A DNA stretch of 64,000 bases from Lama glama (lineage: Eukaryota), in the NCBI GenBank assembly GCA_028534125.1, contig CM052847.1, positions 23,312,001 through 23,376,000 of the forward strand, written 5' to 3'. The notes beneath the pieces are model-generated. The model worked only from the letters and a program-made list of their open reading frames with translations. It was not told where the DNA came from and did no database searches. How positions within the stretch are numbered: position 1 is the first letter of the stretch; each line of letters opens with the position of its first letter. Both the position numbers and the translations under genes were made by a program. Positions 29,632 to 58,189 of the stretch are shown one piece after another.

Positions 29632-29802
29632 GCCCGAGGACTGGACTTGTCCCGCGTGCGGACCTGTGTGGTGGTGGCGGAAGAGCGGCCCCGGATAGCA
29701 CTCACCCAGTCCTTCTCAAAGCTGTTCAAAGACCTGGGCCTCCACCCACGGGCCGTTAGCACCTCGTTTGGCTGTCGGGTGAACCTGGCCATTTGCTTGC
29801 AG
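29632..29802 (+). CDS. DIP2C: DIP2C exon: ARGLDLSRVRTCVVVAEERPRIALTQSFSKLFKDLGLHPRAVSTSFGCRVNLAICLQ
   Basis: tcctag|gcc ... cag|gtgagt; overlaps ORF 29647..29901. Confidence 0.96.
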
Positions 29803-38500: not shown

Positions 38501-40758
38501 TATTAACACACACATCTGCTAGGAAGACTGACGGATGTGGCTTGGGGCCCTGTAGGCAGAAACACTGGTTGAAGTTCAGCTGCCGAAGAGGCCCATTGCT
38601 GAACCCTGTTGCCGTGCCCACTCTGAGCGTAGCTCCCCAGAGTCCAGTGCTGCAGAGCTGCCTCCTGTGGCCCGAGTTGTGGGGAACCACCTCGACTCCT
38701 CAGAAACCCAGCACGACATCAGTGCTTCGGACTTGTCTCGACATCGCACGTTTCCACTTGGCACGTGCTACTTAGGTTCAGAGAGTCAGGTGCTGACGCC
38801 CGATCGTGCTGATGCTGTGGTGGGCGAACTGCTGGGTGGAAGAGCACCACTCAGCTGAAGGGTTCAAACAAGAACTGCGCTGGGTTGTCCATGCTGTGTT
38901 CGGGACATGAGTCCACGTATCTACAGCTGGAGGTTAAACATAACTCGTTTGTTTACTAAGTCCTCGGTACCTAACTCTTTTATAACAGTAAGAAAAAAAT
39001 GACTTTTACTGTGTGTCCATGTGCAACGTTTTTATTATACAGTTGAACTTCAAAAGTTAATCCTCTTTTCTAGTTAATATGACGTGCAGTATCAAACATG
39101 TTTGTTTTCATTTCTGATAAGCTTTGGTTGGAACAGGTGTCTTTGCTTTCCTGCTCATCGTTTCTGCAAGTACCCCGTTATCTTTAAGTTCTGGGGAGCA
39201 TTATGGATCTCCTTATTTAAAGAAATTCCAGCTTACATTCTTTGGCAAAGTGAAGATTTTATTAAATGTGTGCTCCCTGCTATGTGCCTTGAAATCTCAG
39301 ATTTTTGTACCTTGGATTTTTGAAACTTGGAAACACCTTGTGCATCAGCTGTTCGCATGCCCTTACAGATGCAGCTCCTCCGTGCGTCTGCAAGATGGGA
39401 GATGCGTTCCCAATCACGTGTATTTTTTCTTGATACTGCCTTGAGTCATTATAGTAAATTTGTGAATTAAGATAATTTAGAGAGAACATGGATTAATTTT
39501 GCTCCAGTTAATATTTGGGATTCAAGGACTAGTGAGGGAAATTATTTCAATCACTGCATTCAGCTTGAAGAGGCCCAGTGAAAGTCCTGTGTGCCTCTGA
39601 GGTGCACACACCTTTCCTGGCCCCGTTGTTCTCTTTCCTGGAGACCTGCCTCAGTTTCCCAAACCCACAGATGCCGAGAGCAGTGGCCGTGGTTAACCAT
39701 GGGGAAGGGGTGTCACAGAGAGGGGGGCGAGTCGTAGCTTTCATAGTGCCTCCAAGTTGAGTGATGGTAGTTTTTCAGTCTGGCCGTGTTTATTCCCAAA
39801 CTGCAGCCTTGGGAAACCAAGTTAAGACTCCTTTTTCGTTGCTGCCACTGTCATCTCTGGAGCCCACCTGGTGACTGCGATTGCAGGGTGGGGCAGCACA
39901 GGGCTGTACTCACAGGACTGTGCCCGTGCAGCGCCTCCAGCTGGTTCTAGGTTCCTAGGAGCACCTGGGAAAGATACCTAGTCACCTGGGAACAGTACAC
40001 AGCATCAGAGGAGCTCACCCAGGTTGCTTTCTGGAGTCTTCCCACTGTGCCCCTGTAGACGGTTCGGCAGGTAGAGATGGGCACCAGGACGGTGGGAGAG
40101 GAGAGGAGAGGAGAGAGGGTCTTGGGGACAGAGTGGTGGGGTGACACTCCCTCTGCACACTGCTGAGCTGGGCCGTCTCTGAGCGGGGTCTGGATCGTGC
40201 TTCACACAGCCTTTGGCCTCTTTTCTTGTCCTAGTCTTGTGGACGAGTAGGGCTAGACACCCCGATTTCAGGTCCACAAGTTTCCAGGCTCCCCTTCGTT
40301 ACTGTGCTGAGAAACTTGAAACCTTCTCAATGAGGACCACTCAGCAGATTTAGCCAATGAAAGTCATGCTCACCACTTTCTCAGAAAAGAAACTAAAGGA
40401 AAGTACCACAGGACCAGCCCCACTGACCGTGTGTGTCAGAGACATTCGCTCAGGTCCACGTGTCCCTGCCTGGCCATCCGTTTCTCTCTCCTGTCGCTCT
40501 GTGGACATGTGGACATCTTTTCAGATTTTTTTTAGCCTTTAGTGGTACAGTGATTGATTTTAACAATTCCCATATTTGGCATTGTTTTTGATCTTCTTTT
40601 TACTTTGTTCCCTGCTTTTTGCATTCTCCCCCCCACCCCCCTTCTTCACCCCACTTTGATTGTCGGGTGTTTGTTTGTGTGTCTGTGTGTCCCTGATTTT
40701 CCGTGTTCGTCGGTCTGGTGTTCTCTCCCTTCCCGGCTCCCTCCTCCTGCCGCTGTAG

Positions 40759-40788
40759 CCCCACCGGCTGTGGACGCTGGCTGAGCAG
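40759..40788 (+). CDS. DIP2C: Alternative 30-nt in-frame DIP2C microexon encoding PHRLWTLAEQ
   Basis: ctgtag|CCC CAC CGG CTG TGG ACG CTG GCT GAG CAG|gtaggg; phase 0/0 matches the flanking exons; long AG-free pyrimidine tract upstream; I recall this insert from DIP2C isoforms (unverified). Confidence 0.85.
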
Positions 40789-42104
40789 GTAGGGATTTCC
40801 GCTCACCCACACCGGTGCCTGCCCACCACCGGCTCCGACCCTGGCCCCGGGAGTGAGTGCAGAGACTGGCTGGGCTTCCCCACCTGCAGCCAGGAGGGCT
40901 GACGGCCAGCGTGATGTCCACTCTCAGACTTCGTCTGACGCCTCGCATCTGTGGCAAACGCTGTGCTTCTGTTGTACACGATCAGTGGTGTCTTGGCCAG
41001 TTTGCAGTCATCTCTGTTTCACTCCATTTTCCACTTCTAGTGACCCGCTTCCTGGTTTGTGTTTTTGATTGGCCTCTTTGGGTATGCACTTTGCATCACT
41101 CCGCACTCAGAGCTGGTCTGCAGCACAGCTCCACTGACAGGCACAGGTCAGCGAGGACGCTGTGGCCTCACTGCAGGGCAGCCCCGTCCTCCAGGCTGAC
41201 TGCATGTGCTTTCTCGGGGGGGGACTCCTGGGTGGCCTAGTATGTTGTGATGAAGGCGTCTTTATTTTTATGTTTTTCTTATATTTAAACATGCCTTTGG
41301 TACAAGATTAAGATTCTCTCCTGAGGAACTTTAGTCCTTCAAATAAACTCTCAGTCTCTGTTATTTTTTGGCACAGTTTTGTTAGCTTCCATCTTTTTCT
41401 ACTCAAGGTTTGGCGTTACCTGCCCAAGAAATTCACATAGAATTTTGGTTGGTAATGTAGCTTTAAAGCCATGGTTCTTCGTGAATAGAGATCACTGTCC
41501 AGAAGTCAGCCTGTCCTGTGTTTTGAAGGGGTTTGCAGCGCCAAGGTGAGGTTCTGGACTCCTTGTTAAATAAGTAGGGGCTCGGACCACAGGGCGCGGC
41601 CGAGGCAGCCAGTGGTGAACACAGTCTCCCTGACCTGCCCCCTCGCTGGAGGCAAGCTGAGGCACACGGAGAACCGGGAGGACCGGCAGTCCTTTCTCTC
41701 CCTCCTTATCCTGTCGGCTCACGTCACGAGTTCTGCTCTAACGTGTCGAGGTCTAAGCGTTCACCTTTCAGGACGCGTGTGGTGAAGCACCTCTCAGCCG
41801 TGAGGCCTCGTGTCCTCAGCGGCCTGCTTTTGCCAGACGCTGCCTCAGCAGTGCCAGCCTTTTATTAGGCAAGATGCCCCTTTCCGATTTTCGTAGACGT
41901 GACTGAGAGGCAAGCTGTGGGAAAGGCCAGCATTAATAACACGCTCCTGTCAGAGTTAGGTTATCCGTTGAGAGGTGCAGTTTTAGTGCTTTGGGTTTGG
42001 TTCAGTTTCAGACGTTACCAGAGAAATGCTCCCCAGCCAGGGGAACGTGCAGACACAGCTCTCAGGGCAAAAGTGGGTTAACCGCACCGTGTCCTTGCTT
42101 GCAG

Positions 42105-42166
42105 GGGACCTCGGGGCCCGACCCGACCACCGTCTACGTGGACATGCGCGCTCTGAGACACGACAG
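42105..42166 (+). CDS. DIP2C: DIP2C exon: GTSGPDPTTVYVDMRALRHD(R)
   Basis: ttgcag|ggg ... cag|gtactg; within ORF 41991..42446. Confidence 0.95.
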
Positions 42167-42699
42167 GTACTGTGGTTTTGTGTTTGTGGCCCCAGCATCA
42201 GAGAGGAGTGCGGGACGGTCTGCTCCAGGCTGGGTGGTCCGGGGAGTGGGCTTCCCCGGCGCTCACGCCCCGGGGGGCACCCGCTCTGCTCTGAGGGTGG
42301 ATGGAAGGGTCGGCCCAGAGCCGCCACACCCAGGCCGCGTGTCCTCACGGTCTGCCCGGGAGACTGTCCTTCTCTTCAGCATTTCAGTCAGGCATCGCTT
42401 TGCACCTCATGAAATACCAACACTCAGCCCACGTTTCTTTATGTGAATTGAAATGTTCTGTCAAGGTATTTCCACGAAAAACCACAATGCAGGTCAGGGT
42501 GCCTTTCTGTGCAGCTTCCTCAGCAGCCTGAGGGGATGTTGCTGGTGGGTGTGTGTCAGTTTCACCTCAAGGAAGGGAAGTTGGGAGGGTGAGGGCTCTT
42601 CCGAGGAGCTTCTGCCCCAGCAAGGGGCTCCCCCTGGTTCCTGAAGGGCAGAGAAAATCCTGCATTTTCCTACAGACACCCCACTGATGAGGCCACTTC

Positions 42700-50429: not shown

Positions 50430-50487
50430 AGTCCGCTTAGTAGAAAGAGGATCCCCTCATAGTTTGCCGCTAATGGAATCGGGAAAA
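50430..50487 (+). CDS. DIP2C: DIP2C exon: VRLVERGSPHSLPLMESGK
   Basis: ttgtag|a ... aaa|gtaagt; within ORF 50188..50529. Confidence 0.95.
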
Positions 50488-57936: not shown

Positions 57937-58189
57937 TGCTGTGTTCACCTGGACGAACCTGCTGGTGGTGGTGGTGGAGCTGGACGGGTCCGAGCAGGAA
58001 GCCCTGGACCTGGTGCCCCTGGTGACCAACGTGGTACTGGAGGAGCACTACCTGGTGGTGGGGGTGGTGGTGGTGGTGGACATCGGCGTCATCCCCATCA
58101 ACTCCCGGGGGGAGAAGCAGCGCATGCACCTGCGGGACGGCTTCCTGGCCGACCAGCTGGACCCCATCTACGTGGCCTACAACATGTAG
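57937..58189 (+). CDS. DIP2C: DIP2C last coding exon: AVFTWTNLLVVVVELDG...DQLDPIYVAYNM*
   Basis: ttccag|t; ends in the DIP2-family C-terminus DPIYVAYNM followed by TAG. Confidence 0.97.

Follow-up and report, generated by a model that had tools for sequence, protein, structure and literature searches.

The DIP2C gene of the llama (Lama glama) contains in its 3' part an intron of 12,302 nt in which a 30-nt exon was predicted from the DNA sequence, raising the question whether this exon is real, how its inclusion might be controlled, and what ten additional residues would do in FLD2, the domain into which they fall. The original prediction placed a frame-preserving microexon in FLD2, directly after an A5-like strand, and combined this with two further proposals: neuron-biased inclusion through SRRM3/4 and Rbfox, and a resemblance to the FAAL-specific insertion, which restricts domain rotation in fatty acyl-AMP ligases, so that splicing could tune the lipid (DAG)-regulating function of DIP2C. 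We analysed the locus within a window of 64,000 nt, the whole stretch of DNA to which all positions given below refer.

Structure of the locus and of the microexon
Searches by tblastn with fish DIP2C proteins identified the window as the 3' part of mammalian DIP2C, with 20 coding exons extending from about position 868 to a stop codon near position 58186. The microexon occupies positions 40759–40788 of the forward strand and splits its host intron into pieces of 10,956 and 1,316 nt. It is preceded by a TAG acceptor (40756–40758) and followed by the donor CAG/GTAGGG, is free of stop codons and translates as PHRLWTLAEQ. Splice sites are canonical, the length is a multiple of three, and the phases match, with phase 0 at both flanking junctions. 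The upstream exon (29632–29802, forward strand; 171 nt, 57 codons, phase-0 donor) ends in a degenerate A5-like motif and the strand that follows it. Across the whole intron two candidates passed a simple filter for splice-site strength at acceptor and donor, and the microexon was the stronger of the two, with the better donor; the other is a weaker 12-nt AG..GT arrangement at 40059–40070. FLD1 is interrupted by an intron at window position 868; the loop concerned corresponds to that of the microexon in FLD2, but the phase is different. Sequence, phases and the homologues described below bear out the frame-preserving 30-nt microexon in FLD2 at the predicted place, and confirm the exon at 40759–40788 as a real cassette exon of DIP2C, of a length just within the 30-nt limit taken for conserved vertebrate microexons.

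Orthologues and paralogues
The exact peptide PHRLWTLAEQ was found in RefSeq DIP2C models of four other mammals (Marmota, Cavia, Rhinopithecus and Callithrix). In Cavia isoform X3, Marmota X2 and Callithrix X5 and X6, all of them predicted gene models, the same ten residues stand at the same place. Near-identical inserts occur in a seal, lizards, frogs, gar, bichir and teleosts, the form PHRLGKLAEQ being that of gecko, wall lizard, Rana, gar, bichir and paddlefish; the window insert is identical to the gecko and gar DIP2C inserts at 8 of 10 residues. The middle residues are GT in Xenopus laevis and WK in the seal. Both forms coexist in gecko, in which isoforms X1 and X3 include the insert and X2 and X4 skip it. 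Among the 120 matches listed in the first protein search, 78 skip and 35 carry a related insert of 9–10 residues (PHRLGKLADQ and variants; one of these proteins is further extended), the remainder being odd models. The counts of later searches are not frequencies, because those searches were aimed at insert-bearing proteins. A version of nine residues, one codon shorter, was seen in 17 DIP2C proteins of characiform fish. Window positions 40771–40776 encode Trp-Thr, in contrast to the Gly-Lys of DIP2A and of non-mammalian DIP2C; tryptophan is present in all five mammalian insert-bearing models seen, so the loop appears to have gained an aromatic residue in mammals, with the seal retaining lysine.

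The upstream exon revealed two paralogues in the same genome, one DIP2A-like and a second that we take to be DIP2B. At the same junction, the DIP2A-like gene contains a 30-nt exon encoding PNRLGKLAEQ, identical to the DIP2C microexon at 25 of 30 nt. The DIP2A and DIP2C paralogues split early in vertebrate history, and conservation of 7 of 10 residues and of the exact length between them thus implies purifying selection. No exon resembling the insert was found in the DIP2B-like intron, which contains six weak AG..GT candidates, none of them similar. On the simplest reading, the exon would be older than the DIP2A/DIP2C duplication and would have been lost from DIP2B. The paralogues were named from sequence features, and the DIP2A-like peptide matches that of mouse Dip2a in the supplement of PMC12626420. 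The check for a paralogous insert was positive for the DIP2A-like gene and without a match in the DIP2B-like intron. Two further features of the paralogues were observed. Three tandem CTTGAC units directly follow the DIP2A-like donor (extract positions 1554–1577), and none follow the DIP2C exon. On the reverse strand of the DIP2B-like intron (extract positions 889–921), a stop-free stretch of 33 nt is bounded by a pyrimidine-rich CAG and by TGG/GTAAAT; it is unlike the insert and may be due to chance.

Catalogue entries and measured inclusion
The DIP2C microexon is already catalogued and is not a new exon. That it would probably be found in isoform catalogues was correctly foreseen, given the RefSeq models, the exon list of PMC12626420 and a VastDB event. 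The zebrafish dip2a, dip2ca and dip2cb versions are included among 95 conserved microexons, and RT-PCR of them has been published (PMC12626420). These exons and that of mouse Dip2a have the same length and junction and encode PHRLGKLADQ, PHRLGKLAEQ or PNRLGKLAEQ, with GK where the window insert has WT; in this list, the mouse partner given for the fish dip2c exons is Dip2a, not the mammalian Dip2c exon. Reported inclusion of dip2ca was 0.07, 0.06, 0.10 and 0.23 between 24 and 72 hpf, that of dip2cb, which did not rise, was 0.73, 0.86, 0.55, 0.64 and 0.52 starting at 12 hpf, and that of dip2a was 0 at all five stages (PMC12626420). In the same study 45 zebrafish microexons were deleted, with minimal phenotypes for most; the dip2a, dip2ca and dip2cb exons had no match among the deleted exons in its Supplementary file 2 (PMC12626420).

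In human, VastDB event HsaEX0019765 is a 30-nt DIP2C exon with a mean PSI of 18.6 in normal breast and 10.6 in tumours (PMC7935315). It is presumably the counterpart of the window exon, as judged by gene and length rather than by coordinates; two primate RefSeq models encode the identical peptide, and the PSI values are from breast alone. In mouse, a 30-nt Dip2a exon with flanking introns similar in size to those in the llama genome belongs to cortex module M4+, early on and late off (PMC5989265). The only Dip2c exon in the supplements of that study that were searched is one of 168 nt, with no 30-nt Dip2c exon among the entries, and a search of the MicroExonator supplements for dip2 gave no match.

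RNA evidence at the locus
Four of 24 listed RNA runs were compared with window positions 40500–42400. Two raw-read runs placed no reads and hence provided no test. The contigs of the two other runs were several percent divergent from the window, apparently from a related species, and their cover lies outside the microexon. One high-depth contig piece of 72 nt starts at 42095, which is the start of ten letters shared with the skip junction, and is unbroken at 42101, where the inclusion path would join. This fits skipping in those samples, although contigs cannot show absence. The shared letters arise because the upstream exon (29793–29802) and the intron before the downstream exon (42095–42104) end in the same 10 nt. 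Short skip-junction reads would therefore resemble unspliced RNA, and PSI estimates could be biased. The lack of an inclusion read in the four runs (two with no reads, two contig sets off the microexon) would be expected if the AG-30-GT arrangement were an unspliced product of chance. That explanation is, however, refuted in practice by the identical peptide in annotated mammalian isoforms, the paralogous exon and the fish RT-PCR, and we give it virtually no credence.

Splicing signals and regulation
The microexon acceptor is preceded by an A-poor, pyrimidine-rich tract that is free of AG over 206 nt (40551–40756, forward strand) and contains candidate branch-point motifs at 40656 and 40693. 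At the 20 constitutive acceptors of the window the AG-free zone has a median of 25 and a maximum of 130 nt. The last 100 nt before the microexon contain three A, compared with 8–28 at the constitutive acceptors; the DIP2A-like exon likewise has three A in 100 nt, with an AG-free zone of 96 nt. Extended tracts of this kind have been reported for neural microexons, in a study that does not name DIP2 in its main text (PMC12871342).

Both motifs on which SRRM3/4 and Rbfox control had been proposed are present on the forward strand where predicted, a UGC at 40748–40750 (-11 to -9) and a single TGCATG at 41201–41206, 413 nt downstream of the microexon. The UGC fits the SRRM4 layout and is non-discriminating here, TGC being found at -20 to -7 in 12 of the 20 constitutive acceptors. 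As to the TGCATG, 9% of all positions in the window are followed by such a hexamer within 413 nt. Since both occur at chance level in the window, they were rejected as regulatory evidence. Near the DIP2A-like exon there is no UGC within 76 nt and no TGCATG in the first 700 nt downstream, and UGC is scored 'No' for dip2ca in the supplement of PMC12626420. Four YCAY tetramers just past the microexon donor (40789–40848, forward strand) form a possible Nova-type site, which is a lead only: 1.2% of 60-nt tiles reach four, and the cluster is not significant after correction because it was one of 20 motif tests at this tile size. The mouse Dip2a exon is listed as no predicted target of Rbfox, Nova, Mbnl or Ptbp (PMC5989265).

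The DIP2C exon is absent from a list of 314 SRRM4-responsive HEK293 exons (dPSI of 25 or more) in which the control APBB1 is present. The fish 30-nt exons are absent from 708 zebrafish neural exons, 139 of them 28–51 nt in length, among which the only dip2 entries are a 126-nt dip2ca and a 24-nt dip2ba exon (PMC12626424); low read coverage could explain absence from both lists. With SRRM3/4-dependent neural microexons, defined as 3–27 nt long (PMC7935315, PMC12626424), the exon shares frame preservation, conservation, a long UC-rich pyrimidine tract, the UGC near its acceptor and a predicted loop location. It differs from them in its length of 30 nt, outside that class, in its partial non-neural inclusion and in its absence from the SRRM4-responsive and neural lists checked, neural enrichment being set at a dPSI over 15. 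Stage-dependent inclusion in zebrafish and of mouse Dip2a supports developmental regulation of the exon but falls short of strictly neural control driven by SRRM4. A neuron bias through SRRM3/4 and Rbfox is unproven, with some counter-evidence in the motifs at chance level, both list absences and the breast value.

Position in FLD2 and relation to the FAAL-specific insertion
The FLD2 profile of the skip form aligns with no gap to the FAALs 3kxw and 5d6j over a region that comprises A5 motif, linker and FAAL-specific insertion. The stretch running from the A5 glycine to the insertion aspartate measures 24 residues in the skip form and 34 in the include form. Of 48 representatives chosen from 150 matches, five do not cover the site; in 40 of the other 43 the distance is 23–25 residues, with longer loops in three. 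The agreement of the skip form with these 40 indicates that the FAAL-type insertion is constitutive in DIP2C. It is encoded by the two exons that follow on the forward strand, one carrying the linker and the first half of the insertion equivalent (42105–42166) and the next its second half, as judged by alignment (50430–50487), and it is present in both isoforms.

The first strand of the insertion equivalent follows about eight residues after the microexon junction, which falls between the equivalents of FadD32 T354 and T355; the A5 glutamate of FadD32 (E347) is a valine in FLD2. In FadD32 the insertion contacts the C-domain through R368, L371 and N372 (PMC4667280). Counted on the alignment, the equivalents of these residues are 14, 17 and 18 residues past the junction and are thus supplied by the constitutive downstream exon, not by the insert. 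The microexon therefore adds an extra piece upstream of the FAAL-type insertion, in a neighbouring part of the same long post-A5 loop, without counterpart in FadD32, 7r7e-g or 3kxw. A likeness of the insert to the FAAL-specific insertion, or a role in its place, is consequently not supported. FLD2 is required for DIP2 function, in a role described as unidentified, and the tandem FLD1-FLD2 arrangement is needed (PMC9342972). The A5 and A7 motifs of FLD2 are reported to be degenerate, mutating them left yeast DIP2 function not abolished, and the domain is reported to be without retained adenylation activity (PMC9342972). In a domain reported to be catalytically degenerate, a tuning of domain rotation by the insert is unlikely.

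An AlphaFold2 model of Cavia FLD2 with the insert (598 aa) had a mean pLDDT of 92.1, and one of turtle FLD2 without it (588 aa) a mean of 94.3 and no run under 50. In the Cavia model a single run falls under pLDDT 50 (344–353); the insert (341–350) coincides with it and has no assigned secondary structure. The low pLDDT may reflect a thin alignment, in which 10 near-identical rows of 58 bear the insert. FAAL structures were the best matches of both models (TM 0.83 to 7r7g; Z 45.6, rmsd 2.2 and 550 aligned residues to 7r7f). Both forms are predicted to have a FAAL-like fold with the same elements, and the insert is predicted as a low-confidence loop.

Discussion
The reading that we favour, and hold to be probable, is that the 30-nt cassette exon adds a predicted flexible surface loop to FLD2 and likely alters contacts with partners or the membrane rather than catalysis or rotation. 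A weak, regulated acceptor would let the exon be partly included, and the long A-poor pyrimidine tract would keep it regulated and mostly minor. It is probably included more in developing neural tissue than elsewhere, though not exclusively there. When included, the ten residues would lengthen a surface loop of the probably non-catalytic FLD2. This lengthened loop may serve as an interaction surface that changes FLD2 binding, a role suggested by the conservation of the insert and its predicted disorder.

Three other explanations have to be weighed against this one. A canonical SRRM3/4-dependent, switch-like neural microexon, assisted by Rbfox, is a regulatory proposal compatible with other readings, and the UC-rich tract with UGC at -11 behind a very long AG-free zone, the layout of neural microexons (PMC12871342), as well as the developmental increase of dip2ca inclusion (PMC12626420), speak for it. 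We nevertheless consider it rather doubtful. The exon is missing from both the SRRM4 and the neural list, even if coverage could account for this, and the UGC is common at constitutive acceptors, lacking near the DIP2A-like exon and scored negative for dip2ca. Neither Rbfox nor Nova, Mbnl or Ptbp is predicted to target the mouse Dip2a exon (PMC5989265). Inclusion of 18.6% in normal breast (PMC7935315) and the flat dip2cb and zero dip2a profiles (PMC12626420) also argue against a neural bias. Less probable again is that the exon persists chiefly because a permissive loop tolerates an insertion of low effect, one that would have little measurable function of its own. The longer loops in three of 43 distant representatives, the lack of a DIP2B-like counterpart and the minimal phenotypes of most deleted zebrafish microexons (PMC12626420) agree with this, but purifying selection on residues and length between DIP2A and DIP2C does not.

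The mechanism originally put forward, in which the insert shifts the FAAL-specific insertion relative to the C-terminal subdomain and so tunes the DAG-regulating activity of DIP2C, is the one of these three to which we assign the smallest chance. In its favour are the proximity of the first strand of the insertion equivalent, the FAAL-like fold of FLD2 and the need for the tandem arrangement (PMC9342972). Against it stand the constitutive insertion equivalent with its C-domain contacts well past the junction, the predicted elements left unchanged by the insert, the reported lack of adenylation by FLD2 (PMC9342972) and the weak conversion of FAALs by deletion of their insertion (PMC8460268).

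Returning to the surface-loop reading, a more speculative extension, which we regard as possible though not likely, is that a splice-switchable FLD2 loop sets membrane or partner engagement and hence the DAG pool and PKC isoform. The exon would predate the DIP2A/DIP2C split, and its remodelling in placental mammals, from Gly to Trp, would have been confined to DIP2C. As foreseen, no functional study of the DIP2C or DIP2A microexon was found among the papers listed by main-text searches of literature outside subscription journals. The value of the exon as a discovery is low, since it is already catalogued. It represents a natural two-state variant of FLD2 that is conserved in two paralogues and lies outside the published deletion screen checked. 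Comparison of the two isoforms could reveal binding partners of FLD2, a modest and testable lead; if true, the splice-switchable loop would be a first handle on the role of FLD2.
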